Origin: a virus
Virus record (IMG/VR): IMGVR_UViG_3300049889_000020
Strand: one strand, 5' to 3'
Length of the DNA: 64,000 bases
Part shown: positions 14,977 to 32,823 of the stretch, piece by piece
Layout of the letters: every line of letters starts with the position of its first letter
How positions within the stretch are numbered: position 1 is the stretch's first letter
Notes under the pieces: model-generated
What the model was told of the DNA's origin: nothing
Database searches by the model: none
What the model saw: only the letters and a program-made list of their open reading frames with translations
Made by a program: the position numbers and the translations under genes

Positions 14977-15016
14977 ATGGCCGTAGACCGGGGTCCAGAG
15001 TCTGGCCCGATCGACT

Positions 15017-15274: not shown

Positions 15275-15329
15275 GCGGTGCTCGCTTTCGGTTGGGTCGG
15301 AACGCTTACGGCCGGTACATCGCAGAGTT

Positions 15330-15389: not shown

Positions 15390-15414
15390 CCGCACCCGAC
15401 AACTGGAGACCTCA

Positions 15415-16616: not shown

Positions 16617-16712
16617 CCCACAGACTCCCAGGGACCTCCAGAAGCGGGCATCGGGGAAGGATCGCTCACGACTGGCGCAGGCCCAATCGCCGGGTGGGAG
16701 CCGGTGCAGTAA

Positions 16713-16758
16713 GGAACGGTTCCGCTCTCCCTCGTCGGAACAAGAGCGGAACCGTTCC
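16713..16758. repeat. perfect 16-bp inverted repeat GGAACGGTTCCGCTCT / AGAGCGGAACCGTTCC (14-nt spacer)
   Basis: Read directly from the sequence. The right arm contains a CGTTCCGG box (16753-16760). Could be a terminator or an operator. Confidence 0.6.
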
Positions 16759-16839
16759 GGGACGGTCCCCCTGCCTAGTGGCACTGGGCGGGGTGGCCGT
16801 CCCCTCGCCCGTTCCGGCACCCCGCAGACAGGAGACCCC

Positions 16840-17388: not shown

Positions 17389-17395
17389 GAGCGTC

Positions 17396-17560
17396 ATGAA
17401 GCGTTGGCACATCCTGCCCCGGCGCGTGCGCCGATTCCTTCACACCCACGGGTACTGCAACTGCCCCGCCAACCGCCGACTGCGCGAGCCGTCGCCGCAG
17501 CAACGCCGCCTCGACGCTGTTGAGCGGGCCATCCAGGAGCGTCGCCGTGGCACTTCGTAG
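17396..17560 (+). CDS. small basic protein
   Basis: ATG 17396 with AGGAG upstream; 54 aa. Confidence 0.35.
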   Translation: MKRWHILPRRVRRFLHTHGYCNCPANRRLREPSPQQRRLDAVERAIQERRRGTS

Positions 17561-17939
17561 ATCGAAGCTCAAGCGCAGCAGCCAATTCCAGCGCATCGAA
17601 GACCTACCCTCGTGGCTCCGCGACAAGATCGAAGCCGATCGGACGCTGTGGCACGACGGCAAGTCCAAGACGTGCATGCACAACCCGACCCCCCGAAACG
17701 GCATGCCCGTGGTGATGTCCGCCGCGAAGTGCGGGCTCGTCGTTTGCGGCCTGTGCACCGACCTGGTGACCGCACCCAGTTCCCGCCGCGTCGCGAACCT
17801 CACCTGCGACGGATGCGGTCACGTCGTCGAGGACACCGCTACCGATCACCTCGTCGGGGCGATGGCGAAGCTCCAGGGTCTGACGTACGTCTTCGCCGTG
17901 TGCTCACTGTGCCGGGGTCGGATGTCGCAGGCCCGTTAA
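17547..17939 (+). CDS. Cys-rich (zinc-binding-like) protein
   Basis: GTG 17547 with AGGAG 7 nt upstream. Multiple CxxC motifs (CGLC, CDGC, CSLC). Confidence 0.45.
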   Translation: MALRRSKLKRSSQFQRIEDLPSWLRDKIEADRTLWHDGKSKTCMHNPTPRNGMPVVMSAAKCGLVVCGLCTDLVTAPSSRRVANLTCDGCGHVVEDTATDHLVGAMAKLQGLTYVFAVCSLCRGRMSQAR

Positions 17940-17945
17940 CGCGAA

Positions 17946-17969
17946 CAGCCCGCCATTGCTGGCGGGCTG
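17946..17969 (+). terminator. hairpin after 17547..17939
   Basis: 9-bp stem CAGCCCGCC/GGCGGGCTG with a 6-nt loop. Confidence 0.45.
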
Positions 17970-18120
17970 TCCCGGTTCCGGCCTCACCCGAGGGTTATCC
18001 CACAGAGGCATAGCCTCAATGTGGGTCCCGAGATCCGCAAGGCCGAGTGTAACAGGGCAGTGCGGGCGATTCCAGATCATGCGGCGTGCCCCAGCTCCCG
18101 TCAGCGCCGTGGCTGACACC

Positions 18121-18390
18121 ATGCGCTACGTGCAGCTCACTATCGGTGCCCGCGTGCACTACCGCAGCCACGGAAGCCCCATCCTGATCGACGGGTCGCA
18201 GGTCCACGCGCCCAAATGCCGTCCTGCTGATGTGGTCGAGATCATGGGCGGCGAGTTGTGCACCCTGTTCGTGATTAACCCGTCGGGCATTTTCTTTGAC
18301 GAGTGCCGCCACGATGAGTCCCGCTGGCCCAAAGAGCCCCCCGGTACTGGCGGCACCTGGCACTGGCCGTGTGACGTGGTTGATGGCTGA
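18121..18390 (+). CDS. hypothetical protein
   Basis: Strong codon bias begins at ATG 18121. The upstream part of the track ORF is weaker. Confidence 0.5.
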   Translation: MRYVQLTIGARVHYRSHGSPILIDGSQVHAPKCRPADVVEIMGGELCTLFVINPSGIFFDECRHDESRWPKEPPGTGGTWHWPCDVVDG

Positions 18391-20257
18391 CGAGGCGCCG
18401 AAGACCTACAGCGGGGGCATGCTCGCACTGATCCCCGACAATCCCGGTGAGCTGGTTGTTGAGGGCGGTGACCCTGCCGAGCAGATTCACCTCACGCTGC
18501 TCTACCTGGGCGATGACGTGGCGCAGTGGCCGGCGGGGCAAGCCCAGCATCTGAAAGAGCTGATCACGGCGAGCGGGCCGGGTCTGGACGCGGTCACCGC
18601 CCGAATCATGGGCCACGCCGTGCTGAACCCCGACGGGGACGCCGGCAGTGACAAAGAACCGTGCGCGGTCTACCTGGTGGGCGACACGCCCGACCTTGAC
18701 CCGCTGCGCAAATGGGCCACCTGGGTCATGGCCACGGGTGAGGATTACCCGGATCTACCCGACCAGCACACCCCTGTCCTGTGGCATGTGACGGCCGGCT
18801 ACGGGATCGGTATCGACGCGTTGAGCTACATCGGCCCGGTGCGCTTCGCCACGCTGCGTCTCGCGCTGGCTGGTGACGTGCTCGATGTGCCGCTGGGAGA
18901 TCAGGAGGCGGGCATGCCCGGACCACAGGTCAAGTCGATCACGTTCACGCCACCGAAGGCGGTGCGCGACGCGGCGGAGGGTCTGGACGGCCCGTACGCG
19001 CAGGAGGTGATCGAGGGCAAGGCCCTGGATATGTCGGGGCTGATCTGGGTCGCGGGGGCGTGCGGGCCGGCGGGATTGTCGTGGGCTGGGGACATGATGG
19101 GCCGCGCGGAGGTCAAGGCCGCTGTGCGGGAGATGAACATGGGCCGGGTGGTCAACGACGGCCCGCGCCTGGAGTCCATTGATGATCTGCACCGGGCGAT
19201 CGAGGAGCACGGGAACTGCCCGGCTGAGGATCGGCCGGCACGGGTGCGGGTATTACGGGGCCACGCGAAGCGCCTGGGGGCTAACGCGCACACCCTGTCC
19301 CGCATCGACACCCTGGAAGGCGCGAGCACCGACGGCAGCGGTACGAAGTCTGCACCTGAGGATGAGGTTGAGACGAAGTCGTGGGCGCCCGGTAATGCCG
19401 CGCCCGCGCCGTTGCCGCACCTGGCCGCGCTGCACGCCGCGATCCGGGCGCACCCGAAGGTCCGCGACAGCCACAAGGCCAAGCACAAGGAACACCTCGC
19501 GGCCGAGGCGATCCGGTTGGGCGCCGAGCCCCACGTGCACGCCCAGATCGGCTACCTAGAGCCGCACTCGTTCCATGGGAAGTCCCTGGAGGACGGGGTC
19601 GAGGTCAAGGTCACCTCACCGTCGCCGGGGGCGTCGCGGTTGCGTAACTTCTGGGCACGCACCGCTAAGGGCCGGGCGAAGTGGAAGCCGGGCATTCCCG
19701 GTGATTTCAAGCGCCTGCGCCGGCACCTGGCGAAATACGTGCACAATCCGCGCATCCTGAATGGTTTGACCGCGAACATCCACAAGATCGCCACGGGTGA
19801 GTGGCCCGGCAAGAACGCGCACACCGCGAAAGCCAAGCCCGGCAAGCCGATCACTTATGGCGTGAAGTCTCTGGTCGATTGGGAGTGGGATGCCACGGAG
19901 ATCAAGAGTCTGGCTGCGGCCGAGCCGGACCTAGCGGAGATGTTCGCCGGCATCGACGACTGGGGGCAGATCTTCGATGAGCCGTGGGTGGCGGGTTACC
20001 TCGCGGAGCTGGCCGAAGCCCAGGGCGACACCGATGAGGACGCCGAGCCGGCCAGTGAGGTGGAGCGCACCGCCGCGCTGGCCGCGTTGGGCTCCAAGCT
20101 CGTCGCCGACCCCGACCCCGTGGTGGTCGAGGAGGCCGAGCCGGAGCCAGATGCGGACCCGGTCGACGAAGCGCCGTCGGGCGACCCGGACTCCGGCGCT
20201 GATGACGGTGGCTGGGGCGCGCTGTTCGAGGCGGCATCGGCGGAGGCCGTGACGTGA
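18383..20257 (+). CDS. 2H-phosphoesterase (LigT-like) domain fused to a long repeat-containing, acidic-tailed extension
   Basis: Two H-x-T-x motifs in typical context: IHLTLLYLG (His codon 18488-18490) and LWHVTAGYG (His codon 18785-18787). ATG 18383 overlaps the upstream stop region. Confidence 0.65.
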   Translation: MADEAPKTYSGGMLALIPDNPGELVVEGGDPAEQIHLTLLYLGDDVAQWPAGQAQHLKELITASGPGLDAVTARIMGHAVLNPDGDAGSDKEPCAVYLVGDTPDLDPLRKWATWVMATGEDYPDLPDQHTPVLWHVTAGYGIGIDALSYIGPVRFATLRLALAGDVLDVPLGDQEAGMPGPQVKSITFTPPKAVRDAAEGLDGPYAQEVIEGKALDMSGLIWVAGACGPAGLSWAGDMMGRAEVKAAVREMNMGRVVNDGPRLESIDDLHRAIEEHGNCPAEDRPARVRVLRGHAKRLGANAHTLSRIDTLEGASTDGSGTKSAPEDEVETKSWAPGNAAPAPLPHLAALHAAIRAHPKVRDSHKAKHKEHLAAEAIRLGAEPHVHAQIGYLEPHSFHGKSLEDGVEVKVTSPSPGASRLRNFWARTAKGRAKWKPGIPGDFKRLRRHLAKYVHNPRILNGLTANIHKIATGEWPGKNAHTAKAKPGKPITYGVKSLVDWEWDATEIKSLAAAEPDLAEMFAGIDDWGQIFDEPWVAGYLAELAEAQGDTDEDAEPASEVERTAALAALGSKLVADPDPVVVEEAEPEPDADPVDEAPSGDPDSGADDGGWGALFEAASAEAVT

Positions 20258-20900
20258 CCACAACGTTCCCGGATGACGTCGAGACTCCGGAGGACATGGA
20301 CGCGCTGGAATGGAAGGCGCTGCCCACGGCGGAGATGACCTCCCCGCTGACCGGGGTGATCGGTCACGACGACGCCGACGGCACGATCACGGCGCTGGTC
20401 GCGGTGTCCGGGGTGGTCGATGAGGTTGGTGACGTCATCGTGCCAGGGTCGCTGGCTACGGCGATCAAGCGGCTGAAGCCCAAGGGCGTGATGTCACACA
20501 ACTGGTCGGCGAAGGTGTCGCGACTGGTGTGGTCGAAGGAACTCATGCCGGGTGACCCGCAGCTGCCCAGGACGACCCCGCAGGGCGAGCCGTGGCCGGC
20601 CAACGCGGGCGGTCTGCTGATCAAAGCGAAGTACAACCTGGATAAAGAGATCGGCCGCGACGCTTACGCGGACGCCAAGTTCTACGGGCCGGAGGAATGC
20701 TTCTCCATTGGGTACAAAGTGCGCCCCGGTGGCTATCGGATGCGCAGCGGCAAACGTTACCTACACGATTACGATCTGTATGAGTGGTCCCAGGTATTGC
20801 ACGGTGCACATAAGCTCGCGCACTTGACGGGGGTGAAATCCCTTTCCGAGACTGTCGCCGACGCATGGTATGATGACCCTCGTTCCGGTGTCACCGACGA
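20254..20900 (+). other. prohead (capsid maturation) protease domain, HK97 / S78-U35-like
   Basis: GTITALVAVSGVVDEVGDVIVPGSLATAIKRLKPKGVMSHNW ... FSIGYKV ... YEWSQVLHGAH matches the family pattern as I recall it. Occupies the protease slot between portal/MuF and capsid. Confidence 0.65.
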
Positions 20901-23900
20901 GGGGACCACTGTGCTTGATGGCGTGGAGTACAAGGGCATCCGTGTCGTGCGCGACGCCGAGTTCTGGGGCATGCCCCTGGGCACCCCCATCAAGGCCGGC
21001 ATGCGCCCCCGCAGCGGCCAGACACCCACCACCGCGCAGATCGCGGCCACCACCGCACCCGGCAGCGCGGACGCCAAGCCTGAGGTCCCCGGCAAGCCCG
21101 GCGTCCCCGGTGCTGCCGGCGTACCTGGCGCGCCCGGTGACCCCGCCCTGGCCCCGCTCGCCCCACCCGGCCCCGGTGTCCCCAAAGCACTGGCCGCGCT
21201 GCACCAGCGCTACCAGGAACTCAATGAGCAAGTCCAGCAGACCCCGGCGTTCGGTGACTCCAGCCTCGCCGAGAACTCCCTGGCGATGCTCGCCCAGTTC
21301 GCCGCCCCCGGTGCCGATGTCCACGCGTCCACCGACGGGCAGCTCGCCGCCGTCCACGGGCCCGCCGGCTGGACAATCGTCGACACCGCCAACGCGGGCA
21401 GCGGCCTATCCAACGCCGCCCAGATCCCCCCCGACGCGCCCCCCGACCAGATCGACGCCGCTCTCGAACACCTCACCCAGATCGGCATCCCCTGGGATGA
21501 CATCGAAGCGCGTAAGAAGCGGTGGGCCAACGCGAAGCAGAAGACGGCCGACCAGCAGGCCGTCCGTGACGTCCTGTCTCAGATCACCCCGTTCTCCGCC
21601 CCCGCACCCGTCGGCGAGGACGACGCGGCCGGTGCCCGTGATGACGCCGAGTCGGCGATCGCCACCCAAGACCGTGATGGGCTCGCTGAAGCCCTCACGC
21701 GGATGGGCCTGCCGCCCGATCAGGACCCCCGTGAGATGGCCGCCAGTCTGCTGGTGCTGCCATCGGAGGTCGCCGCCAAACGTCTCGACGCGGTCGCCGC
21801 GCAAGCCGTGATCCCCCAGGTAGGTGCTGCCCCCGATGGCGGGCAGCAAAAGCCGGGCGTCGCAGGCCCGGCTCCGACGGTTCCACCGGGGGCAGCACCG
21901 CACGCTAACCCGCCCGCGCCCGTTAAGCCGAACCCGGTAGGCACCGCCCACGCTGACGGCACCACCACCGTGACGGCCGGTGCGAACACCATCCCCGGCG
22001 GCCACGACCTGCCCCAGACGCCGCCCGCTGCCCCGGAAGCGCCGGCCGCGCCCGCTGATGACCGCAAGTACGGCACCCCGGTGCTGGTCAACACCTACGG
22101 GGTGAAGCCCGGTAGCTACCCCACAGTGAAAGCCAGTGAGGTCCGTACGGGTGACCACGTCATGCTGTCGCGCCACGATGGCGGCAAGGTCACCCAGGCC
22201 AAGCCGGGCCGCACCGGGCAAACACTGATCACCTACGACGACGGCACGGGTGGCGGCACCCAAACCCGTGGGGTTAAGAACGGTTCCGCGCTGCCGCTGG
22301 TGTCCGCCGGCACGCCGGCTGTCGACCCGAGCAAGCCCCAGGCCGCGCCCGAGCACGAGTACAAGCCCACCGGCAACCACAACGCCCCCGAGAAGCTGAC
22401 CGACGCGCAGCTCGCGGCGGAGTCTGAGGCAGCGCACAAGCGGCACATGGCGGCCCGGTCGAACAATCTGCCCAAGAACTCCCTGGAGTACAGCGACTCG
22501 AAGCTCGCCGCTACCCGCTTCGGTGACGAGGCACGCCGCCGGGCCGCCGCGACCGTCGCGGAGTCGACACCGGCCCCCGAGGTCGACGCTCACCCGCTGG
22601 TCACCCCGGCCGCCCCCGATGACGCCGCTCTGCTCGCCCAACTGTCCGGGCATGTCACCGCGCCGCAGTTGTCCGCCGCGCTGGCGACCATCGCCCGCGA
22701 CCAGAGCGACCCGGCGCTCGCCCACGCGGCGACCATCGCCCGTGGCAGTCTGGATTCCCCGTCGGCGAAGACGCCGGAGAAGCTGGCCGCTGAGCTGATC
22801 CGGGTTAAGAACCAGATGGCGCAGGCGCCTGACTCGGCTACTTTGCACGCCACTCTGGACGGCCTGGAGCGCATCGTTAAGGCGCTGAAGGCCGATAACT
22901 CGAAGATCCAGGTGGGCGGCAAGGCCCGCGCGGGCTCCCCGCAGCGCCAACTCCTGCACGAGAACCTGGCCGAGTACACCCGCCACGTTCGGGGCGCGCT
23001 GCACGCTGACGAGAACCCCGACAAGCCCGCTGACCAGCCTCCGGCGACCGCACCGGAGGGCACCGGAGGGCCGGAGGCCAAGCCTGACCCGCTGCGGCCC
23101 GCGCCGGGGCAGGTCAACTACACCGCGATTCAGAAGCGCAGTCACCCCGCCTATCGGGACGCGGCACTGCGCCAGCTTGATGACGCTGAGCTTGCGTCGG
23201 TCAAGCGGGAAGCCGCCCGACGCGGTGGGCACGGCGCCAACATGGCCGACAGTGTCCACACGGAGGAGATCCGTCGTCGCATCACTCCCGACGAGCTGCG
23301 CAAGCGCGCCGACAAGACGGGCGGTGGCGCGTCCGACGGTGAAGCCAAGCGGATGCGGGACCGCGCCGACGATTACGAGCGTCGCGACGCCGCCGGCATC
23401 GGCCGCCATGACTTCGCGGCCCTGCCGTTGGGCGAGCACCCGAAGACACCGGAGTCCACTGGCGGGGAAGTGCCCGAAGGCACCCCGGACGGCACCGTGC
23501 CCGTGCCCCCGGAGGTCGCCGACTCCGCTCACCGCATCCGGGGTGAGGCCCTGGGCCTCACGGACGGCCCCGATGGGCAGGAGGAGGTCACCCAGGAGGT
23601 CGCCGACCGCCAGGAGCGGGTGGCGGCACTGCTGGAGACCGGGGAGACCGGCCTGGCCGACCAGACCGACCCGCAGCTGCACGAAACCCGCAAAGACCTC
23701 ACCGACGAGCTGGCGCTTCAGGACGAGCTGCACCGTCGCGACACCGAACGCAAGCGGGAAGCGGCGGTCAAGAAGGCGGAGGCCGGGGCGTCTTCCGTGT
23801 CGGCGACGGACGCCCCGGCCGGGCCGGAAGATACCGGCCCGAAAGTCCGTCCCGGTGTCGCGGGTGCCGCTGAGGATCTGGGCGACGCCCTGAACGCGAC

Positions 23901-26900
23901 CCCGCGCGATGACGCTGCGGTCGCGGTCGCCGCTGAACGCTTCGCGAAGATGATGCGCCGCCACGGGGAGTCCACGGCGTTCGACGACATCCGCACCGCC
24001 ATCGGTGACGGTGACGTTCACACCGCGATCGCTTCCGGGAAGCTCAAGGCCGGCATGCTGTTCACCGCCGCCGGGGCGTTGCGTGAACAGCGTCGGGTGA
24101 AGCGCAATGAGGGCGCGAAGGCCCGCCGGCTCGCGAAGCGCCTGGACCGTGACCGGATCAAGTCCCTGATCGGTTCAGTGGATGCGGAGTTGCGTCGCCG
24201 TAAGGGCGCGACCGAAGATGGCAAGCGCGGCGCGGCGAACGTGGCCATTGGTCCGGTTTCGAGCACCGCCGCGCCGTCCAAGACCGCCCCGGCCGCCGAG
24301 CCCGCACCGCACCCGCAGCAGGCCCGTCGCGACGAACGCGACGCCCGCCTAGCCGCCGACGGCAACCGCGTTCAGCGCGCCCAGGAGCACATGCGGGAAG
24401 CCCGCACCGCCGCCGATGGCGGTGATTTCGAGGGCGCATTCGCTCACCTCGATCAGGCGCAGGAACTGAATCCGGAGCGCCAGCGACTCTGGGATAAAGC
24501 GCGTGGAATCGTCACCGGGCAGCGCGACCGCAGTAAGTCCACCGCTACACCAGCGGAGCCCGATCAGGCTCGTCGTGCTGAGTTCGATAAGGCCGTCGCT
24601 GAGGACTTCCCCCCCGACGCCTCTGTGCGACTGTTTCAAGACTGGGATCGGGACCACTCCCGCCCTGACCTGGCCAGCGATGTCACCGCTGTTCGCCGAG
24701 CCCGCAATGGTTACGTCACTGTGCGGGAGTCCAAGGGCACCACAGTTGACGTGTTCCCACGGCAGCTAGAGCTGGTCGGCAGCGCCCAGGGTGCACAATC
24801 GCCCCAGAGAGAGGGTGATGATCGTGGGAGTTCTGGCGAGACAAACCGAAGCGTGGTACCGGACGTACCAGCCGCAGACGTACGCGGGGATCAAGGACAA
24901 GCAGACGTTCTTCGCCGATCTGGAGGAGCAAGCCCGCCAGCAGATACAGCAGACAGCCGACCAGCTGGCCGGGCCGGATCCGGAGGGGGAGACCTACCAG
25001 GAGAAGCTGGGGCGCCTGAACGCCGCGCAGCAAGCGGCGACAGAGAAGGTGATGCGGGAGTTCCTGATGAGCCCGCCGCCCCCGAACGCCCCGGACAACG
25101 CGCTGCCACTGCCGGCGACACCGGACCCGTCGATGGTGCCGACGCAGGACCCGATAGATCAGGCGCTGACTCAAGCGCTGGCGGACTTCCAGGAGGCGGC
25201 CGACGAGCTGAGGCGTCAGGAGAGGGAGAGCGCGAAGGCGGCGATGCCGACACTGCCGGCGCGCCCAGCGCACCTGAGTTAACCGAAGCCGACCAGCCCA
25301 GCGCCGACATTGGGCAGGTCGATGCGATCCCCGACACCGGGGAGTCCTTTCACCCCACCGGGCTGGACGACTTCGCTCCGGCCGGTAAGAAGTCGAAGCT
25401 CGAAGCGAACCTCGCGGCGCTGCGCACGTTGCGCCAGTTGCAAGACGACCGCCGCAGCGCCACCCCCGAAGAGCAGGCCGTGCTCGCTCGCTGGGCCGGT
25501 TGGGGTGGACTGCCGGAAGTCTTCGACGACAACAAACCCGAGTACGCGAAACAACGGGAGGAGCTGCGTGGACTGCTGTCGGACTCTGAATGGGCAGAGG
25601 CTCGCCGCAATACCCTCAACGCCCACTACACCGACCCCCGCGTGGTGCAATCGCTGTGGAAGGCAATGGGAGATCTGGGGTTCGACGGTGGTCGCGTCCT
25701 CGAACCCGGCTCCGGATCCGGAACGTTCATCGGATTCGCGCCCGGCAACGCCGACATGGTCGGAGTCGAGTTGGACTCGACGACAGCTGCGATCTCTCGT
25801 GCCCTCTACCCGCACGCGACGATAAGAAACGAGTCCTACGCGGCCACCCGGCTACCGGCCGGCTCGTTCGACGCGACGATCGGCAACGTCCCCTTCGGTG
25901 ACTTCGCCCTGACCGACCGGGTGCACAACCCCAATCGCAAGATGTCGATCCACAACCATTTCATCGCCAAGGCCCTGGCCCAAACCAAACCCGGCGGGCT
26001 AGTCACCCTGCTCACGTCGCGCTACACCCTGGACTCGAAAGACTCCGCCGCGCGCAAGAAGCTGGCCGAGCTGGGCGACCTGGTTGGTGCGGTGCGCCTG
26101 CCTACGGGGTCGCACTCCCGGATGTCGGGCACCGATGTCATTGAGGACGCCCTGATCTTCCGGCGCCGGGAGCCCGACGCGGCACCGTTGACGTCGCAGG
26201 ACTGGGTGAACTCCCACGATCAGGACATCAACGGTCACACGGTCACCATCAACGACTACTTCACCGCCCATCCCGAGCAAGTGCTGGGTGAGGTCACCGC
26301 AGAGGCCGGCCAGTACGGCAGCGGGTCACTGATCGTCAAGGGCGACAAGACGATGGCGGACCTGCCGGCCGCGCTGGACCGGATCGTGGAGTCGGCGAAA
26401 GCCGACGGCATCACCGCGTCGCCCCGCATGGAAGGCCTCACGGCGTTCACCACCCCCGACGATGACCGCCACGAAGGCCACATCGCTGCCCACGAAGACG
26501 GCACATTCACCCAAGCCGAACAGGGCACCGCCGTGCCCCTGGACGTGCCCGCCAAGCACGCTGACGCGGTGCGCGGGCTGATCGGCCTACGCGACACCCT
26601 GCGGTCCCTGCTGGCCGCTGAAGCGGCTTCGGTGTCGGACTCCCCGGACATCAAGGCGCTGCGCAAGCAACTCAACGACCGCTACGACGCGTTCGTGAAA
26701 AAGTACGGCCCGGTCAACCACTACACGCTGACCAAATCTGGGGCGCGCAAGCCCGACCCGGCCCGCAACCTGTTCCGCAAAGACCCCATGTCGGCGATCG
26801 TCCGCGCCCTGGGCGCTTACGACGCCGAGACCGGCACCGAGGCGAAGACCAGCATCTTCCGCAAGCGCGCCAGCACCCCACGGGAGATCCCCACCCACGC

Positions 26901-29900
26901 CGACAGTCCCGAGGACGCCGTCGCGCTGTCCATGGACACCTACGGCCGGGTGGACCTCCCCGCGATCGCCACCATGCTGGGCACCGATGAGGCCGGCGCA
27001 CGGGAACGCCTGGGCGATCTGGTCTTCGAGCAGCCGCCACTGTCAGCGGCCGACGCCGACGCCGCGTTCCGCGCCCACATCGAAGAGGCGTCCGGGATTG
27101 CCAGCGACGGCGGGCGTTTCGGTGGGATCTCAGCGGGCCTGAACCTCGACGACGCCCCGGACACCTCCGTGCTGGACTCCGTCGGGGAGGCGGTGCGCTC
27201 CGAAGGTTCCCTGGAGCCGGCCGCCGCGTATTTGTCCGGCAACGTGCGCCGCAAGCTCGCCGCCGCCCGCGAGGCCGCCAAGCGCGACGACCGCTTCGCC
27301 AAGAACGTCACCGCGCTGGAAGCGGTGATCCCCCCGGACCTGGGTGTCGACGAGGTCGACGGGCGTCTGGGCGCGGCGTGGATCCCCGCCGATGACGTTC
27401 GGGCGTTCATGGTGGAGCTGCTTTCCGACGGTGATGACCCGTACAACTCCATCAAGGTCTCCACGTCAGGTGGCGGCATCTGGACCGTGGAAGGCGGCCA
27501 GTGGGGCACTAAGGCCACTGAGGAGTGGGGCACTGACCGGCTTTCCGCCGGGGAGATCATCCAGTCCCTGCTGGAGCAGCGATCCATTCAGGTCCGCGAC
27601 ACCATCAAAGACGCCGACGGTAAGTCGAAGTCCTACCCGAACTTAGAAGCGACCACGGCCGCCCAGGCCAAGGCTGAGGAGTTGTCGGACCGGTTCTCCG
27701 AGTGGCTGTGGGAGGACTCCGATCGCACTCGGCGCCTGCTGGCCGCCTACAACAACCAGTTCAACGCGATCCGGTTGCGTTCCTACGACGACATGCCACG
27801 GGTGTTCCCCGGCATGGCCGACAGCTTCGACCCTTTCGATCACCAGGTGGGCGCGGTCAACCGCATGGTGTCCGAGCCGTGCGCGTTGCTCGCCCACGTT
27901 GTCGGCGCCGGCAAGACCGCCGAGATGGCGATGGGCACCGCTGAGCTGAAGCGCCTGGGTCTGGCGAACAAGCCCGCCATTGTCATCCCCAACCACATGC
28001 TGGAGCAGTTCTCCAGCGAATACATCCAAATCTACCCCAACGCTAAAATCTTGGCCGCCGGTACCGATGACCTGACCGGGGATAAGCGCCGGGAGTTCGT
28101 CGCCCGCGCGGCCACGGGTGAGTGGGATGCCATTATCCTCACTCAAAAGGCCATGGAAGCCATTCCGATGTCGCGCCCGGCGATGCAAGCCTACATCGAC
28201 CGGGAAATGGCGACGATGAAAGCGCAGCTCGCGTCTGCGCAGGCATCGGCGGCGGGTGACTCCGCTAAAGAGAAGACCGTTAAGAAAATGGAGAACTCGC
28301 TGATCAAGGCTGAGGAGGCCCTGAAGGCGAAGCTGGACAAGGTCAAAGACGCCGGGGTGAGCTGGGAGGAGACCGGCATCGACTACCTGTGTGTTGATGA
28401 GGCGCATATGTACTCCAACCTGCGCACCATCTCCAACATCCAGGGCGCGGGGGCGACCGGGTCGGACATGGCGTCGGACCTGCACATGAAAATGGAGCAC
28501 CTGCGGGCGAACAATAAGTCGGGCCGGGTGGGGACGTTCGCCACGGGCACCCCGATCCGCAACACGGTCACCCAGGCTTACATCATGCAGCGCTACCTCG
28601 ACCCTGAGACGTTGCGCCAGGCCGGTATTCACTCATTCGACCAGTGGGCGGCGACGTTCGGCAAGACTGTTGATGAAATGGAACTCAAGCCCGAGGGCAC
28701 CGGGTTCCGTCAGACCACTCGTTTCGCGAAGTTCCGCAACGTCCCTGAGTTGCTCAGATTGTTCCACCTGTTCGCCGATGTGAAGATGGCCGATGACCTG
28801 AACCTGAAGACCCCGAACCTGACCACGGGTGGGGTGCAGAACGTCATCGTGCCGGCGTCGCCGGAGCTGTCCGCCTATGTCCAGGAGCTGGGCCAGCGCG
28901 CCGAAGATGTCCGCAACGGCAAAGTCAAGCCCGAAGAAGACAACATGCTCAAGATCTCCGGTGATGGCCGCAAGGCCGCCCTGAGCATGGCGTTGGTGGG
29001 GCAGAAGCATCAGCCGGGCAAGATCGAACAAGCGGCCGACAACATCTACAAGATCTGGGATGAGAACAAAGACCGGCCCGTGCCGAAAGACATCAACGAC
29101 CCCGCTGGTGGCGACGACCCGCCGCCCGGTGGCATGCAGATCGTGTTCTGCGACATGGGCACCCCCGGCGGTGCCGGCATGAACGCGTATCAGAAGTTGC
29201 GTGACGAGCTGGCCGCCCGTGGCATGGACCCGAAGTCGATCCGGTTCATGCACGAAGCCAAAAACGATCGGGAAAAGGCGGAGCTGTTCGCCGCCGCCCG
29301 CAACGGTCAGGTCTCCGTGCTCGTGGGGTCGACGGAAAAAATGGGTGTCGGCACCAACGTGCAGCGCCGCGCCGTCGCGCTGCACCACCTCGACGCCCCG
29401 TGGCGCCCCAGCGATGTGGAGCAGCGCGACGGCCGGATCATGCGCCAGGGCAACACCAACGCGGAGGTAGCGATCTTCCGCTACGTCACTGAGGGCAGTT
29501 TTGATGCCTATATGTGGCAGACGCTGGAGCGCAAAAAGAAGTTCATCGACCAGATCATGCGCGGCAAGATGGGCGACGTCCGGGAGATCGAAGACGTCGG
29601 CGACACCGCCCTGTCCTACGCCGAAGTCAAGGCCCTAGCCACCGGGAACCCGCTGCTCATGGACAAGGCGAAAGTCGACGTCACGGTCGGCAAGCTCACC
29701 CGCCTGGAGCGCCAGCACGCCAGGACCCAAACCAACCTGCGCCGCGACGTGGTCTCCTACGGGGCCAACGCGGAACAAGCCGACGCTGACGCCGCCGCCT
29801 ACAACGCCGCGATCGCCAAGCGCACCGACATCAGCGGTGACAAGTACTCCATCAACGTCGCCGGCATTACCGCCCGGACCCGCGCCGACGGGGCGACCCT

Positions 29901-31188
29901 GCTGAAGTCGGCCATGCAGGACCAGATCCGGGAACGCCGCTACGGCTACGCCGGCTCGAAACCCAAACCGCTGGCCACCATCGGCGGTCACGTGCTGCTG
30001 GGCCAGCCCGAGATCCACTACGACAAGCTCGGCACGAAGCGCTTCGGGATGACGCTGTCCTGGGAGGGCCTGCCCGGCACCATCGTGCACATCAGCCCCG
30101 ACGACGTCGACAAGCTCGGCGCGGGCATCAACACCACCCTGACGAACTCCCTGAACAATCTGGAGTTCCGCCGCGACCTCCAGGTCGACCGGGCGACGTC
30201 GCTGCGCAGCGAAGCCGAGACGATGAAGGCCCGCATCGGGGTGCCGTTCGCCCACGCTGAGGCCCTGAAGGAAGCGACAGCGGAATCAGCCCGGTTGCAG
30301 GCCGCCATGGAGGCCGCCGGCATGAAGGGCGACACCGGCCCGCAACAGGATGAGGCCACTAAGGGCCTGGCCACGGCACGAACGAAGGCCACCGTGAAGG
30401 TCGGTCACATGGGCCGGGGCAGCGCCGGGCCGGAGAAGGACCGCCTGAAGCGGTTCTCCATCCCCGCCGCGTCCCCTGACGCCGCCGCGTCACCGGATGG
30501 CACCCTGGCTGCCCTGGGCAGCGGCGACAAGCTCCAGGTGTTCATGACGTCGGACGGGGAGCTGGTCCCCCGACCCGATGACGCGCGCGGGGCGATCGAC
30601 AACGTCCACGCCCTGCTCGATGACCTCGCGGCGCTGGACTTCCCGTGGGCCGAGGGGCACTGGGCGATCAACCGTCGCATTCAGCCCGGCTACAGCGGTG
30701 GCTACGAGGCCCCGGACTACTCCAAGCCTTATGAGGAGCGCGAGCGGATCCGCAAGGCGAAAGAGGCCGCGCGACAGGCCGAGGTTGATGCGGAGCGGGC
30801 GAAAATCGACGCGGTGTGGAAGCGTCACCTCGTGGGCGCTGCGGAGGAGAAGACGGCCGAGTCGCTGGTCGATGAGTGGACGATGCTGCGCGCCGCCCGG
30901 TTGGGTGTCGAGTTCAAGCTGCGCACCGAGCAGGGCCCCAAACCGTCGGACACGGGCGCGGATGGCCCCGACACTGACGGCGATGACGATGTGGAGTCCT
31001 ACGAGGACACCGTCATTGAGGGCTACCGCTACGTCATGGACGCCGCCGGCATCCTCGTGAAGGTCGCGCCCTGCCCGGAGTGCGGCAACGACATCATGAT
31101 CCCCGCCTACGGGATGGTCGGCACGGCACCGTGCCCGTCGTGCGGCACGGGCGCGTTGCAGGGCCGGGCGACCGCCACGGTGGGCTAG
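20254..31188 (+). CDS. giant polyvalent protein: HK97-type prohead protease + unknown domains + N6-adenine DNA methyltransferase + SNF2-family helicase + C-terminal zinc ribbon
   Basis: Uninterrupted 3,644-codon ORF. GTG 20254 with GGAGG 7 nt upstream. Domain motifs are listed in the sub-features. Caveat: codon bias leaves this frame between about 24805 and 25283. Confidence 0.75.
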   Translation: MTTTFPDDVETPEDMDALEWKALPTAEMTSPLTGVIGHDDADGTITALVAVSGVVDEVGDVIVPGSLATAIKRLKPKGVMSHNWSAKVSRLVWSKELMPGDPQLPRTTPQGEPWPANAGGLLIKAKYNLDKEIGRDAYADAKFYGPEECFSIGYKVRPGGYRMRSGKRYLHDYDLYEWSQVLHGAHKLAHLTGVKSLSETVADAWYDDPRSGVTDEGTTVLDGVEYKGIRVVRDAEFWGMPLGTPIKAGMRPRSGQTPTTAQIAATTAPGSADAKPEVPGKPGVPGAAGVPGAPGDPALAPLAPPGPGVPKALAALHQRYQELNEQVQQTPAFGDSSLAENSLAMLAQFAAPGADVHASTDGQLAAVHGPAGWTIVDTANAGSGLSNAAQIPPDAPPDQIDAALEHLTQIGIPWDDIEARKKRWANAKQKTADQQAVRDVLSQITPFSAPAPVGEDDAAGARDDAESAIATQDRDGLAEALTRMGLPPDQDPREMAASLLVLPSEVAAKRLDAVAAQAVIPQVGAAPDGGQQKPGVAGPAPTVPPGAAPHANPPAPVKPNPVGTAHADGTTTVTAGANTIPGGHDLPQTPPAAPEAPAAPADDRKYGTPVLVNTYGVKPGSYPTVKASEVRTGDHVMLSRHDGGKVTQAKPGRTGQTLITYDDGTGGGTQTRGVKNGSALPLVSAGTPAVDPSKPQAAPEHEYKPTGNHNAPEKLTDAQLAAESEAAHKRHMAARSNNLPKNSLEYSDSKLAATRFGDEARRRAAATVAESTPAPEVDAHPLVTPAAPDDAALLAQLSGHVTAPQLSAALATIARDQSDPALAHAATIARGSLDSPSAKTPEKLAAELIRVKNQMAQAPDSATLHATLDGLERIVKALKADNSKIQVGGKARAGSPQRQLLHENLAEYTRHVRGALHADENPDKPADQPPATAPEGTGGPEAKPDPLRPAPGQVNYTAIQKRSHPAYRDAALRQLDDAELASVKREAARRGGHGANMADSVHTEEIRRRITPDELRKRADKTGGGASDGEAKRMRDRADDYERRDAAGIGRHDFAALPLGEHPKTPESTGGEVPEGTPDGTVPVPPEVADSAHRIRGEALGLTDGPDGQEEVTQEVADRQERVAALLETGETGLADQTDPQLHETRKDLTDELALQDELHRRDTERKREAAVKKAEAGASSVSATDAPAGPEDTGPKVRPGVAGAAEDLGDALNATPRDDAAVAVAAERFAKMMRRHGESTAFDDIRTAIGDGDVHTAIASGKLKAGMLFTAAGALREQRRVKRNEGAKARRLAKRLDRDRIKSLIGSVDAELRRRKGATEDGKRGAANVAIGPVSSTAAPSKTAPAAEPAPHPQQARRDERDARLAADGNRVQRAQEHMREARTAADGGDFEGAFAHLDQAQELNPERQRLWDKARGIVTGQRDRSKSTATPAEPDQARRAEFDKAVAEDFPPDASVRLFQDWDRDHSRPDLASDVTAVRRARNGYVTVRESKGTTVDVFPRQLELVGSAQGAQSPQREGDDRGSSGETNRSVVPDVPAADVRGDQGQADVLRRSGGASPPADTADSRPAGRAGSGGGDLPGEAGAPERRAASGDREGDAGVPDEPAAPERPGQRAATAGDTGPVDGADAGPDRSGADSSAGGLPGGGRRAEASGEGEREGGDADTAGAPSAPELTEADQPSADIGQVDAIPDTGESFHPTGLDDFAPAGKKSKLEANLAALRTLRQLQDDRRSATPEEQAVLARWAGWGGLPEVFDDNKPEYAKQREELRGLLSDSEWAEARRNTLNAHYTDPRVVQSLWKAMGDLGFDGGRVLEPGSGSGTFIGFAPGNADMVGVELDSTTAAISRALYPHATIRNESYAATRLPAGSFDATIGNVPFGDFALTDRVHNPNRKMSIHNHFIAKALAQTKPGGLVTLLTSRYTLDSKDSAARKKLAELGDLVGAVRLPTGSHSRMSGTDVIEDALIFRRREPDAAPLTSQDWVNSHDQDINGHTVTINDYFTAHPEQVLGEVTAEAGQYGSGSLIVKGDKTMADLPAALDRIVESAKADGITASPRMEGLTAFTTPDDDRHEGHIAAHEDGTFTQAEQGTAVPLDVPAKHADAVRGLIGLRDTLRSLLAAEAASVSDSPDIKALRKQLNDRYDAFVKKYGPVNHYTLTKSGARKPDPARNLFRKDPMSAIVRALGAYDAETGTEAKTSIFRKRASTPREIPTHADSPEDAVALSMDTYGRVDLPAIATMLGTDEAGARERLGDLVFEQPPLSAADADAAFRAHIEEASGIASDGGRFGGISAGLNLDDAPDTSVLDSVGEAVRSEGSLEPAAAYLSGNVRRKLAAAREAAKRDDRFAKNVTALEAVIPPDLGVDEVDGRLGAAWIPADDVRAFMVELLSDGDDPYNSIKVSTSGGGIWTVEGGQWGTKATEEWGTDRLSAGEIIQSLLEQRSIQVRDTIKDADGKSKSYPNLEATTAAQAKAEELSDRFSEWLWEDSDRTRRLLAAYNNQFNAIRLRSYDDMPRVFPGMADSFDPFDHQVGAVNRMVSEPCALLAHVVGAGKTAEMAMGTAELKRLGLANKPAIVIPNHMLEQFSSEYIQIYPNAKILAAGTDDLTGDKRREFVARAATGEWDAIILTQKAMEAIPMSRPAMQAYIDREMATMKAQLASAQASAAGDSAKEKTVKKMENSLIKAEEALKAKLDKVKDAGVSWEETGIDYLCVDEAHMYSNLRTISNIQGAGATGSDMASDLHMKMEHLRANNKSGRVGTFATGTPIRNTVTQAYIMQRYLDPETLRQAGIHSFDQWAATFGKTVDEMELKPEGTGFRQTTRFAKFRNVPELLRLFHLFADVKMADDLNLKTPNLTTGGVQNVIVPASPELSAYVQELGQRAEDVRNGKVKPEEDNMLKISGDGRKAALSMALVGQKHQPGKIEQAADNIYKIWDENKDRPVPKDINDPAGGDDPPPGGMQIVFCDMGTPGGAGMNAYQKLRDELAARGMDPKSIRFMHEAKNDREKAELFAAARNGQVSVLVGSTEKMGVGTNVQRRAVALHHLDAPWRPSDVEQRDGRIMRQGNTNAEVAIFRYVTEGSFDAYMWQTLERKKKFIDQIMRGKMGDVREIEDVGDTALSYAEVKALATGNPLLMDKAKVDVTVGKLTRLERQHARTQTNLRRDVVSYGANAEQADADAAAYNAAIAKRTDISGDKYSINVAGITARTRADGATLLKSAMQDQIRERRYGYAGSKPKPLATIGGHVLLGQPEIHYDKLGTKRFGMTLSWEGLPGTIVHISPDDVDKLGAGINTTLTNSLNNLEFRRDLQVDRATSLRSEAETMKARIGVPFAHAEALKEATAESARLQAAMEAAGMKGDTGPQQDEATKGLATARTKATVKVGHMGRGSAGPEKDRLKRFSIPAASPDAAASPDGTLAALGSGDKLQVFMTSDGELVPRPDDARGAIDNVHALLDDLAALDFPWAEGHWAINRRIQPGYSGGYEAPDYSKPYEERERIRKAKEAARQAEVDAERAKIDAVWKRHLVGAAEEKTAESLVDEWTMLRAARLGVEFKLRTEQGPKPSDTGADGPDTDGDDDVESYEDTVIEGYRYVMDAAGILVKVAPCPECGNDIMIPAYGMVGTAPCPSCGTGALQGRATATVG
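20869..20913 (+). promoter_or_regulatory. internal promoter/leader-like element with in-frame GTG 20911
   Basis: TATGAT (20869-20874), 5 nt, TCGTTCCGGTGTCACCGA, then GAGGGGA and GTG 20911. 36 of 47 nt are identical to 9438-9484 upstream of the sigma operon start, with identical spacing. Confidence 0.45.
24818..25282 (+). CDS. embedded 154-codon gene in an alternate frame of the giant ORF (helical protein, TnpV-like by recollection)
   Basis: This frame has near-uniform G/C third positions. GAGAGGG lies before ATG 24818 and TAA at 25280. Protein begins MIVGVLARQTEAWYRTYQPQTYAGIKDKQTFFADLEEQARQQIQ...GRLNAAQQAATEKVMREFLM. Confidence 0.55.
   Translation: MIVGVLARQTEAWYRTYQPQTYAGIKDKQTFFADLEEQARQQIQQTADQLAGPDPEGETYQEKLGRLNAAQQAATEKVMREFLMSPPPPNAPDNALPLPATPDPSMVPTQDPIDQALTQALADFQEAADELRRQERESAKAAMPTLPARPAHLS
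25330..26170 (+). other. N6-adenine DNA methyltransferase domain of the giant ORF
   Basis: Motif I VLEPGSGSGTF (25702-25728). Motif IV GNVPFG (NVPF at 25885-25896). Confidence 0.75.
27835..29460 (+). other. SNF2/DEAH helicase domain of the giant ORF
   Basis: Walker A GAGKT (27904-27918), DEAH (28396-28407), motif III TGTPIRN, motif VI QRDGRIMRQGN. Confidence 0.8.
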
Positions 31189-31197
31189 GGAATAAGA

Positions 31198-31252
31198 GAC
31201 GGCCCCGTCGGGGGGGGATCGGGGCCGTCGGGCTGGGGCTACTTACCCCAGC
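31198..31252 (+). terminator. two tandem hairpins after the giant ORF
   Basis: GACGGCCCCG/CGGGGCCGTC (31198-31229) and GCTGGGG/CCCCAGC (31232-31252). Confidence 0.55.
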
Positions 31253-31435
31253 GGGGAGACCTTCACTGTAGCTGACATGGCGGCGTGTCGCTGCCGCCAT
31301 TTGCGTCACCAGTGATCTACTGCGCGCAACGCGCCTGGTACTGACCGGTGCGAGTCCCCGAGCACGATGGGGGTTCGCTTCGGCCTACCCGCTTCCCGTG
31401 CTCGAACACACACCGAGCGCAAGGGAGACGCGGCA

Positions 31436-32791
31436 GTGACCGCACCTACTCTCGACCGCCACGACAAAGACCTCATTGATCGTGGCAAGGTCGAAGTGAA
31501 GTCCATCAACGCACAAATGGACGAGATCACCAAGTCAGGTTGGCTCGACGGCGAAGGCAACATGCACGTCAAGCCCGAAGCCCTCACCGAGTTCAAGGCC
31601 CTGCTGGCCAAGGCTGAGGAGACTCACGGCATCGTCACCGCCCTGGAGCGCAAGGGCCTCCTGGATGAGTGGCTGGACGCCCCTGCCGGCACCCCGGTGG
31701 CGATGGGTGGAGCCCCGGCCGGTATCGGCATGACGGCGATGCCCGAGTACAAGTCATTGGGGCAGCGCTTCGTCGAGTCGGATGCTTTCAAGAGCCACCG
31801 TGACTCCGGTTTCATGGACAAGGCGTTCGCTATCGAGGGCGAGGAGATCACCTCCCCCAACGGCGGCGTGCAGTACAAGGATGTCCACTCCGGCAGCATC
31901 GGCACCGTTGTGCACCCCGGTTTCGGCACGGTGCAGCGGGCCCCGATGGTGAGCGCACCGATGCTCACCTGGCGGGTGCGTGACCTGTTCCCGCAGATGA
32001 ACACCAACTCGGTGATGATTGAGTTCATCGAGGAGCTTGGGTTCGTCGATGCGGGCGACAACGCTGCGGCGATGATTCCCGAGCGCGACGGTCTGAGTCC
32101 GGAGAACTTCGGTCTGAAGCCGAAGTCCCAGATCCACTTCAACATCAAGACCACGCCGATCCGGACTCTCGCCCACTGGGTGCCCGCGTCGCGCAACGTG
32201 CTTGATGACGAGCCGCAGTTGCGGGGAATCATCGACACCCGGCTGCTTTACGGCCTGCGGTTGGTCGAAGACCAGCAGCTGCTTCTGGGTGACGGCACGG
32301 GACAGAACCTGCTGGGCATCTTCAACACCCCAGGTATCCAGTTGTTCCCCTCTGGCGGCTATCACGCACCGACTAACGAGACCTACGTCGATGCCATTCG
32401 CCGGGGCGCCACTCGCGTCATGTTGGCACAGTATGACCCGACCGGCGTGGTTGTGCACCCTTACGACTGGGAGCGCATGGAATTGACTAAGGACACCCAG
32501 GGCCGCTATTTGGTCGCGGGGTCGGTCACTTCCGGTGCGGAGAAGCGGCTGTGGCAGATGCCCGTTGTCGCTACTCCGGCGTGCCCTGAGGGCACCGCGC
32601 TGATCGGCGCTTTCGGGTTGGGCGCGCAGGTTTTCGACCGCATGCAGTCCAACATCCGCACCGCTGACCAGCATGCGGACTTCTTTATTCGTAACGCCAT
32701 CGTGGTCCTGGCCGAAGAGCGGCTGGGGTTGGCCGTCTACCGTCCCGCTGCCATGGTCAAGGTCAACCTGGCCGCCGCGATCGCAGCCTGA
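31436..32791 (+). CDS. major capsid protein, HK97 fold with N-terminal delta-like coiled domain
   Basis: GTG 31436 with GGGAGA 7 nt upstream (the track starts at ATG 31367). The stretch VRDLFPQMNTNSVMIEFIEE...PERDGLSPENFGLKPKS...LRLVEDQQLLLGDGTGQNLLGIFNTPGIQ is typical of HK97-family capsids. Confidence 0.85.
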   Translation: MTAPTLDRHDKDLIDRGKVEVKSINAQMDEITKSGWLDGEGNMHVKPEALTEFKALLAKAEETHGIVTALERKGLLDEWLDAPAGTPVAMGGAPAGIGMTAMPEYKSLGQRFVESDAFKSHRDSGFMDKAFAIEGEEITSPNGGVQYKDVHSGSIGTVVHPGFGTVQRAPMVSAPMLTWRVRDLFPQMNTNSVMIEFIEELGFVDAGDNAAAMIPERDGLSPENFGLKPKSQIHFNIKTTPIRTLAHWVPASRNVLDDEPQLRGIIDTRLLYGLRLVEDQQLLLGDGTGQNLLGIFNTPGIQLFPSGGYHAPTNETYVDAIRRGATRVMLAQYDPTGVVVHPYDWERMELTKDTQGRYLVAGSVTSGAEKRLWQMPVVATPACPEGTALIGAFGLGAQVFDRMQSNIRTADQHADFFIRNAIVVLAEERLGLAVYRPAAMVKVNLAAAIAA

Positions 32792-32823
32792 TCGGCGACT
32801 AGCACAAGAATAGGAGTAATCGA

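Follow-up and report, generated by a model that had tools for sequence, protein, structure and literature searches.

A giant protease-DarB gene with a nested tnpV-like gene in the head module of an uncultivated phage

The window analyzed here, the 64,000 nucleotides of IMG/VR virus record IMGVR_UViG_3300049889_000020, carries directly 5' of its capsid gene a giant open reading frame (ORF) that joins a prohead protease to a DarB-type methyltransferase (MTase) and helicase (Table 1; positions are those of the window). This ORF is a single, genuine late gene, and it belongs to an uncultivated contractile-tailed phage of soil type whose hosts have high G+C and are probably actinobacterial. Its predicted product appears to be a polyvalent chassis made up of the protease, a disordered region, a helical domain and a zinc-ribbon tail, with an inserted LPD36-MTase-SNF2 module separating the helical domain from the tail; the linker in front of this module is overprinted on a tnpV-like gene in another frame. 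Polyvalent, presumably head-delivered proteins are known; new here are the N-terminal position of the protease in a polyvalent family, the helical domain and the dual-coding tnpV, a feature that was unexpected and is well supported.

A continuous gene with protease and DarB-type domains

The first-pass annotation of this DNA described a single uninterrupted ORF of 3,644 codons on the + strand (20254-31188), and both the ORF and every motif quoted for it proved exact at their coordinates. A syntenic gene occupies the same slot, directly 5' of the capsid gene, in five other assemblies. In four of these the protease-DarB gene is likewise uninterrupted: L004 and L005 (IMG/VR), which are identical to each other over the compared ORF, encode a 3,563-aa protein ~95% identical to that of the window, and L016 and L017 (both Logan) encode proteins of 3,330 and 3,507 aa with the same architecture. 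The fifth, L018 (Logan), has a 1,634-aa product consisting of protease, helical domain and zinc-ribbon tail, without DarB or tnpV. A search for syntenic homologues with separate protease and MTase-helicase genes returned none; the two are fused (L004, L016, L017) or the DarB module is absent (L018). Nor does any stop codon or frameshift divide the protease from the rest in homologues, the ORF being continuous in L004/L005, L016 and L017.

Comparison with L004 indicates that the whole ORF is under selection as a coding sequence. All seven indels between the two genes are multiples of three, the substitutions outside the tnpV region fall on third positions of the giant-ORF frame, and the codon differences, with the tnpV overlap excluded, comprise 489 synonymous and 148 non-synonymous changes. 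Purifying selection thus acts along the entire giant ORF, and taken together the independent assemblies, the in-frame indels and the excess of synonymous changes exclude an artefact or a pseudogene for practical purposes. The ORF is far beyond chance and conserved.

The proposal that the N terminus is an HK97-type protease was borne out by several lines of evidence. The domain matches phrog_80 ('head maturation protease', E 2.4e-14), and its 29 closest homologues are proteins of 143-422 aa that share 36-51% identity with it and mostly carry PF04586. An alignment of 16 sequences revealed three invariant residues, His82 (20497-20499), Ser151 (20704-20706) and Glu177 (20782-20784), and S150 and G152 are invariant in the alignment of 23 members of the family described below; by analogy, His82 and Ser151 are presumably catalytic. 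Consistent with these findings, an AlphaFold2 (AF2) model has a predicted local distance difference test score (pLDDT) above 90 between aa ~40 and ~180; among PDB structures, Foldseek ranks T4 gp21 first (5JBL; probability 1.00, E 1e-3, TM 0.52 on target), followed by the proteases of Epstein-Barr, herpes simplex, pseudorabies and varicella-zoster viruses and human cytomegalovirus, all with modest E-values. A six-frame HMM scan of the 64-kb window gave no second protease, which leaves the giant-ORF domain as its sole S78 protease. The protease gene stands with the portal and capsid genes, a placement kept in L016, L017 and L018. The first-pass placement of the gene between portal/MuF and capsid is right as to the flanking genes, with the qualification that MuF and the giant ORF are ~5.5 kb apart, with other genes in between.

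Beyond the protease lies a short motif in which, across the 23 family members, the W, P, G, T and I columns are nearly invariant. This motif gives short matches to phrog_21406 and phrog_960, is predicted to be disordered (pLDDT <50), and may serve in docking or cleavage. It is followed by the variable region of Table 1, which had no Pfam, PHROG, NCBIfam or PDB assignment; a viral scan with aa 260-1459 gave nothing, and PDB sequence searches with the protease, the middle part and the DarB part gave no match. The long, poorly assigned middle noted in the first pass therefore stands, and self-BLAST detected no internal repeats in the giant ORF.

The C-terminal two-thirds of the protein are occupied by the DarB-type module and the tail, and here too the first-pass assignment of a DarB-type MTase, an SNF2 helicase and a terminal zinc ribbon held up. 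The module matches phrog_10089 ('DarB-like antirestriction') with E=0 and 1286 bits, and BLASTP against P1 DarB aligns three collinear segments (E 5e-22, 1e-21 and 2e-15). Its homologues in conjugative elements of Citricoccus and Kocuria are ~1,650 aa long, the Citricoccus protein being 44% identical over ~1,670 aligned positions. Helicase_C (above its cut-off) and ResIII of Pfam match the helicase part. Directly N-terminal to the MTase, at aa 1745-1759, lies ARWAGWGGLPEVF, which resembles the GxGU signature of LPD36 by motif and position only. By analogy with P1, the DarB-type module may be packaged in the virion and protect DNA in cis from type I restriction. Past the end of homology to the plasmid proteins, a conserved tail (aa 3516-3644) reads RYVMDA...CPEC(x16)CPSC and forms a predicted zinc ribbon (31072-31143); it is kept in L004 and in the family proteins P0061 (which is without the DarB module), P0062 and P0086. 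As a side observation, several standalone proteases of 320-400 aa (P0001, P0002, P0007, P0009, P0014, P0016 and P0018) carry a CxxC...CxxC pattern after the protease domain, and the giant ORF ends in a CPEC...CPSC ribbon; these zinc ribbons could be homologous and could act as tails that target the capsid.

A protease-led family and a possible route into the head

An exhaustive HMMER search with aa 260-1459 as query (E<=1e-10) found 26 representatives of a family to which the giant protein belongs. Nearly all members are 930-3,500 aa long and combine an N-terminal protease, the motif VRDxxYWGLPxGTPI and a helical domain of ~230 aa; the protease is N-terminal in all 23 aligned members. Pfam models detected Peptidase_S78 directly (PF04586) in 13 of the 23, Zeta_toxin in four and ADPrib_exo_Tox in one, as well as helicase domains in the DarB-bearing members. 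Between the helical domain and the toxin of the four Zeta members are 130-240 aa, which puts the toxin in the slot that DarB holds in the window. The helical domain itself has 29 invariant columns in the family alignment, and AF2 models it with confidence (mean pLDDT 91.2, predicted template modelling score 0.71) as nearly all helix, with long helices. The fusion is thus more than a one-off: ~25 clusters place protease and helical domain first and then DarB, a Zeta toxin or an ADP-ribosyltransferase. That L018 retains protease, helical domain and zinc-ribbon tail without DarB identifies the DarB module as an insertion. The simplest reading of these architectures is a protease-led chassis that takes inserted effectors, with the effectors C-terminal to the helical domain and, in the clade of the window, the zinc-ribbon tail as part of the chassis. 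The family has so far been seen in metagenome assemblies only.

Several known systems resemble parts of this arrangement. Iyer et al. 2017 (PMC5512222) describe P1 DarB as part of the virion head, where it shields incoming DNA in cis against type I restriction. Like the giant ORF, it combines an N6-adenine MTase (with the motif IV GNVPFG) with a following SNF2-like helicase, collinear in three segments, and both genes lie in or beside head-morphogenesis genes, P1 darB being divergent from prt-pro. Unlike the giant ORF, P1 darB is a separate gene (2,255 aa; 26-38% identity over the matched segments) with neither a protease fusion nor a nested tnpV, whereas here the DarB-type module makes up the C-terminal two-thirds of the protease gene itself. 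Packaging of P1 DarB depends on other Dar proteins, in the system formed by Hdf, DarA, DdrA, DdrB and Ulx.

The giant ORF also resembles the polyvalent proteins in that disparate enzymatic domains (protease, MTase and helicase) occur in one chain among virion genes. In the survey of these proteins by Iyer, Burroughs, Anand, de Souza and Aravind (2017, J Bacteriol, PMC5512222), the LPD36-MTase-SWI2/SNF2 module is the third most prevalent element, head packaging is predicted for the phage proteins, and assemblin-like peptidases, for which a processing role in virion assembly is predicted, are rare and 'always at the C termini'. Here and in the ~25 related clusters, by contrast, the assemblin-type domain is N-terminal and the helical domain follows. 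TnpV has no occurrence in that paper, nor is a dual-coding linker mentioned (PMC5512222).

HK97 gp4 and other Peptidase_S78 proteins share with the giant ORF the fold class, the invariant His and Ser and the position directly 5' of an HK97-fold capsid gene; the closest S78 homologues have the 143-422 aa given above, compared with 3,644 aa and an effector enzyme in the giant protein. Proteases that bear a capsid-interacting helical segment are established for lambda (C/Nu3) and P2 (gpO); in the giant protein, no resemblance between the helical domain and known scaffolds could be detected in the PDB or BFVD. Closer in sequence are Streptomyces phage Gilgamesh gp52 (641 aa, protease plus NUDIX) and Gordonia phage DalanDe gp27 (1,633 aa), whose S78 domains are 42-47% identical to that of the window and are likewise fused and encoded just 5' of the capsid gene. 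In DalanDe gp27 the protease is at aa ~1120-1300, near the C-terminal end, and in neither protein did tblastn against the phage records detect the helical domain. These two proteins, together with the C-terminal assemblin-like peptidases already listed in PMC5512222, make the novelty that the first pass attached to a protease-DarB-type fusion too strong; we found no description in the open-access literature of an N-terminal prohead-protease effector fusion. As an aside, Gilgamesh (MN234216.1) gp52 is annotated as 'hydrolase', and the same phage has, between the genes for a portal-MuF fusion and for this protease, gp48, whose 4,624 aa give no Pfam match.

The most likely mechanism, and one that we consider reasonably probable, is that the protein is made as a single chain, co-assembles into the procapsid and cleaves itself, and that the MTase-helicase is then ejected with the DNA to act against restriction. 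The giant gene would be translated, by coupling to the upstream head gene, as one chain. The protease, the helical part or both would then co-assemble with capsid protein in the procapsid, as HK97 gp4 does, carrying the DarB module along. Once activated, the protease would trim the N-terminal extension of the capsid protein, its presumed substrate and partner, and would cut its own chain free of the cargo. The MTase-helicase, of ~180-220 kDa, would be kept in the head and exit with the DNA, conferring protection in cis in the manner of P1 DarB. TnpV would be made separately from its own ribosome-binding site (RBS). The effector repertoire of the family, the position of the gene and the presence of a single protease in the window lend indirect support to loading and release by this route.

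Several considerations weigh against this mechanism. The packaging, cleavage, ejection and anti-restriction steps are ones that we infer, and no cleavage sites could be predicted in the giant protein. Assignment of the protease is indirect at the level of profile thresholds, since aa 1-260 have no Pfam match at E<=1 and TIGR01543 reaches 31.8 bits, short of its cut-off of 59, so that membership rests on PHROG, on the PF04586-bearing homologues and on the modelled fold. No relative of known function could be detected for the helical domain (no significant Foldseek neighbour in the PDB or BFVD, and no Pfam match), and that it is scaffold-like or binds capsid protein is a guess from its model. 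The capsid protein has an HK97 fold at aa ~227-471 preceded by an extension of ~225-250 aa, which may be a delta or scaffold domain and could itself supply the scaffolding. The HK97 protease is present in tens of copies per head, and if the giant protein were present in such numbers its cargo would fill a sizeable share of the capsid volume. Finally, the helical domain was found neither in 50,697 deposited phage genomes (tblastn) nor in 185,579 species genomes (profile scan of contigs), so that the family offers no experimental system. Of the first-pass interpretation as a whole, then, the structural claims stand, the claim to novelty goes too far, and the idea of capsid targeting and self-release keeps the conditional form given here.

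Alternatively, the DarB part might not be ejected at all, the fusion to a late head gene serving to set its timing and dose; the protease would free it in the producer cell or the prohead, there to methylate progeny DNA before packaging or while it proceeds, and the next host would be met with pre-modified DNA. The intact MTase motifs would suit such a role, the fusion would guarantee late co-expression, and ejection is in any case the inferred part of the mechanism proposed above. Three observations nevertheless make pre-methylation unlikely in our view. The nearest functional model, P1 DarB, is described as a component of the virion head whose action on incoming DNA is in cis (PMC5512222); the Zeta toxin and ADP-ribosyltransferase of the sister architectures are host-directed and would be of little use in a dying producer; and the plasmid homologues lie beside genes for relaxases or type IV secretion system (T4SS) coupling proteins, which is consistent with action in the recipient.

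Entry of large enzymes into phage heads is understood in few systems, such as T4 with its capsid-targeting sequences, the P1 Dar hierarchy and the N4 virion RNA polymerase. If co-assembly, self-cleavage and ejection do occur as proposed, a maturation protease that leads its cargo would be a simple and genetically compact solution to loading, would double as address label and release device for injected weapons, and would offer a natural scaffold for engineered protein delivery by phages.

A tnpV-like gene nested in the linker

Third-position G+C content (GC3) in the giant-ORF frame is 0.77-0.95 from end to end, in a genome of 67% G+C, with a single exception at ~24780-25290, where it falls to 0.37-0.50 and the codon-position signature shifts to the +1 frame. 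Substitutions relative to L004 in this region likewise concentrate on third positions of the +1 frame. Part of what the first pass had listed as unassigned segments is thus, over ~465 nt, a separate gene that had been overlooked: a tnpV-like gene with its own RBS, which lies in the +1 frame and has standalone homologues. Indeed, all 31 TnpV homologues are standalone proteins of 114-172 aa, several of them named TnpV by NCBI, on which ground we rejected the idea that frameshifts have scrambled an in-frame TnpV domain. Matches to 130-135-aa 'TnpV protein' entries of Citricoccus and Kocuria have E-values of 1e-9 to 3e-11 (35% identity and E 1e-19 pairwise), and 20 actinobacterial plasmids have a TnpV match, annotated as such in nine. 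Searches for a curated TnpV model retrieved no Pfam TnpV family at E<=0.1 and no NCBIfam at E<=0.01, and tblastn with TnpV against the 50,697 phage records gave no match. We take the protein to be linked to the TnpV of Firmicutes Tn4451.

The gene is found in the +1 frame of the giant frame also in L004, L006, L007, L015, L016 and L017, with TnpV identity down to 45%. Just 5' of its RBS lies a conserved nucleotide motif, AGGGTGCACAATCGCC, which is kept in L004, L015 and L016, even though the last two have a TnpV of only ~52-58% identity; its role may be that of an internal promoter or a regulatory element, or it may mark a cassette junction. The giant protein reads through the same stretch in frame 0, producing a predicted linker that includes GDLPGEAGAPER.

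The giant (DarB) frame contains no stop codon in any of the nine tnpV copies tested. As a null model, each tnpV was recoded synonymously with local codon usage, under which the frame was open in 0.9-30% of trials depending on the gene (P 0.009-0.30), values that, the tnpV lineages being related, cannot simply be multiplied. Among the other genes of the window, 5% of 160-codon windows are open in that alternative frame. Chance is a poor explanation for the open frame over tnpV, and the nested tnpV is a clean, statistically supported and conserved gene-within-gene in bacteria and mobile elements. We found no description in the open-access literature of a tnpV nested in a helicase gene. In practical terms, public annotation gives only one of the two overlapping products.

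The same layout occurs in actinobacterial conjugative plasmids and integrative and conjugative elements, namely in Citricoccus, Kocuria, Paenarthrobacter (pTC2) and a Micromonospora plasmid, as well as in one metagenome contig. TnpV of these elements is 35% and their MTase-helicase 44% identical to the phage proteins, and they share with the phage the order tnpV-DarB, a DarB frame equal to the tnpV frame minus 1, and a DarB frame open across all of tnpV. The DarB module and its nested tnpV together match a conjugative-plasmid cassette, a correspondence that the first pass had overlooked. Annotation of these elements offers either tnpV plus a 5'-truncated helicase (Citricoccus, Kocuria) or a long 'helicase' without tnpV (Paenarthrobacter aurescens TC1 pTC2, CDS 1129-6618, and Micromonospora); besides the nine copies tested by recoding, two further plasmid records have a long coding sequence (CDS) annotated over tnpV. 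The plasmid and phage versions differ at their ends and in their setting. In most plasmid records, namely those in which no further domain precedes the DarB-type ORF (L010, L011, L012 and L019), this ORF starts ~75-85 nt 5' of tnpV; it has a dedicated RBS and opens with a conserved peptide, M..GQLSxDxxLFPEPE, which is absent in the phage copies; in the phage this start is replaced by an in-frame fusion to the ~1,500-aa protease chassis, and the zinc-ribbon tail is added. The plasmid cassettes lie beside the relaxase or coupling-protein genes mentioned above, whereas the phage copy lies in the head module. Evidently the phage took up this dual-coding cassette in full, by way of a single in-frame junction immediately 5' of the tnpV RBS, which illustrates how a phage can capture an anti-restriction cassette of plasmids. 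A 252-nt in-frame segment that is present in the window and not in L004 or L006 ends 25 nt before the tnpV RBS; this indel and the motif at 24788-24803 could mark the cassette junction.

In one plasmid, that of Micromonospora sp. NBC_00821 (NZ_CP108881.1), a 2,502-aa 'helicase' CDS (L020 5713-13221) begins with an N-terminal part of ~430 aa (primase-like by eye), after which come the tnpV-overprinted linker and then the DarB-type module. This fusion indicates that where the module is joined to other domains, the dual-coding linker accompanies it.

The long ORF might be open while its products are nonetheless separate, namely a protease and helical protein, TnpV and an internally started DarB-like protein, with read-through incidental or minor, somewhat as with the nested products of lambda C/Nu3. 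The RBS and conserved N-terminal peptide of the plasmid DarB-type ORF, just 5' of tnpV, are compatible with this possibility, as are the motif 5' of the phage tnpV, which might be an internal promoter, and the openness of the alternative frame over 160 codons ~5% of the time at 67% G+C. We consider separate products quite improbable, however. There is no frame-0 stop, so that ribosomes starting at 20254 must reach 31188; the plasmid-type start peptide is absent in phage copies, and no frame-0 ATG, GTG or TTG occurs from the tnpV stop to the conserved LPD36 region; and the frame is open in all nine copies, including phage lineages at 45-52% TnpV identity. The indels, moreover, are always multiples of three, and no conserved slippery heptamer is present for a -1 frameshift from tnpV into DarB. 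Such a programmed frameshift was considered in its own right and rejected, as an X XXY YYZ heptamer is not conserved among the ten loci examined, which gave just two matches, non-homologous to each other.

That the ORF is an assembly chimera, a product of compensating frameshift errors at ~24.8 and 25.3 kb or a decaying pseudogene is barely credible, for although the frame-0 translation of 24780-25290 resembles out-of-frame sequence (GC3 0.37-0.50), the same two-frame layout recurs in independent IMG/VR, Logan and ENA assemblies as well as in the finished plasmid sequences of cultured bacteria, every TnpV homologue stands alone and none is an in-frame domain of a large protein, and purifying selection extends over the whole ORF.

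The favoured reading, a single chain loaded through its protease, can be extended to a broader proposal, namely that the chassis is a modular capsid loader of an uncultivated actinophage group with host-directed plug-in effectors, the protease serving as address label and release device, and that the DarB-tnpV module of high-G+C phages and plasmids is obligatorily dual-coding, selection keeping the ~465 nt free of stops so that they also encode the flexible linker of the giant enzyme, and both products being made. We put forward this combined proposal tentatively, as one with somewhat less than an even chance of holding in full.

Neighbouring genes and feature coordinates

The window comprises the structural module of a contractile-tailed phage, with sheath, tape measure, baseplate and endolysin genes 3' of the capsid gene. 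The 4-nt overlap between the start of the giant ORF and the stop of the preceding gene is found also in L004, L016 and L018, those relatives in which it could be checked. A scan of 18-33 kb for promoters and terminators found sites no commoner than in shuffled sequence, megablast of 18000-33000 against phages gave no match, and no Rfam family matched the window at the gathering threshold.

Table 1. Coordinates of features in the window and, where stated, in related records
Feature	Position	Strand	Basis or remark
tRNA-like gene, four-base anticodon (cggc), amino acid not assigned	8864-8941	-	ARAGORN
Sigma-factor-like phage protein	9649-10488		phrog_1740, E 5e-18
Portal gene	11769-13448
MuF gene	13414-14754
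DUF932 gene	15292-16407		PF06067
653-aa ORF	18296-20257		no Pfam or NCBIfam match
Translation start region of giant ORF	20242..20257	+	Shine-Dalgarno GGAGG 20242-20246; GTG 20254 overlaps TGA of upstream 653-aa ORF (GTGA)
Giant ORF, 3,644 codons, GTG start, predicted product 388 kDa	20254..31188	+	ORF listing
HK97/S78-type (assemblin-fold) prohead protease, aa 33-190	20350..20823	+	phrog_80, homologues, fold
Post-protease motif VEYKGIRVVRDAEFWGMPLGTPIKAGMRPRSG, aa 224-255	20923..21018	+	consensus VRDxxYWGLPxGTPIxPGMKP in 23 family members
Variable Ala/Pro/Gly-rich region with few small conserved modules (e.g. aa 703-759)	21019..23430	+
Conserved helical domain, aa ~1084-1318	23503..24207	+	BLAST mapping in family, AF2
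252-nt in-frame segment (84 aa, GC3 ~0.62-0.68)	24530..24781	+	in window, not in L004 or L006
Giant-protein linker, Gly/Ala/Arg/Asp/Pro-rich, overprinted on tnpV	24782..25347	+	frame 0, stop-free
Conserved nucleotide motif AGGGTGCACAATCGCC	24788-24803	+	just 5' of tnpV RBS; kept in L004, L015, L016
tnpV RBS AGAGAGAGG	24806-24814	+
tnpV-like gene, 154 aa, 17 kDa, pI 4.6, ATG start, TAA stop	24818..25282	+	+1 frame of giant ORF
DarB-type module, aa ~1700-3364	25348..30345	+	phrog_10089, plasmid homologue, P1 DarB BLASTP, Pfam
LPD36-like helical region with GWGG	25348-25530	+
N6-adenine MTase motif I EPGSGSGTF	25702-25728	+
MTase motif IV NVPF	25885-25896	+	NPPF variant, shared with P1 DarB (GNVPFG)
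SNF2-like helicase	~27826-29454	+
Helicase GAGKT	27904-27918	+
Helicase DEAH	28396-28407	+
SNF2-type TGTPIRN	28543-28563	+
SNF2-type QRDGRIMRQGN	29422-29454	+
Phage-specific C-terminal extension, aa 3365-3644	30346..31185	+	past end of homology to plasmid DarB-like proteins
CPEC	31072-31083	+
CPSC	31132-31143	+
GC-rich hairpin GACGGCCCCG / CGGGGCCGTC	31198..31229	+	10 nt past giant-ORF stop; terminator-like, without T run
Major capsid protein gene	31367..32791	+	PF05065 E 4e-40, phrog_10
Nested tnpV, plasmid record L010	1467-1874
Nested tnpV, plasmid record L011	3455-3847
Nested tnpV, plasmid record L012	2369-2725
Nested tnpV, plasmid record L019	~1205-1561
Nested tnpV, plasmid record L020	~7001-7387
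Gilgamesh gp48 (L009)	11979-25853
Gilgamesh gp52 (L009)	27165-29090

The 653-aa ORF that is translationally coupled to the giant ORF has syntenic homologues of 622-793 aa in L016 and L018. Its aa 30-208 match phrog_18402 ('head maturation protease', positions 398-564 of 861) and also the C-terminal part of phrog_2659 ('RNA ligase'), and its product may be another head-associated cargo protein. Within the head module, the DUF932 gene comes after MuF and before the protease gene, as it does in L016 and L018. On the 5' side of the structural module lie the gene for a sigma-factor-like phage protein and, on the opposite strand from the giant ORF, the tRNA-like gene with a four-base anticodon.

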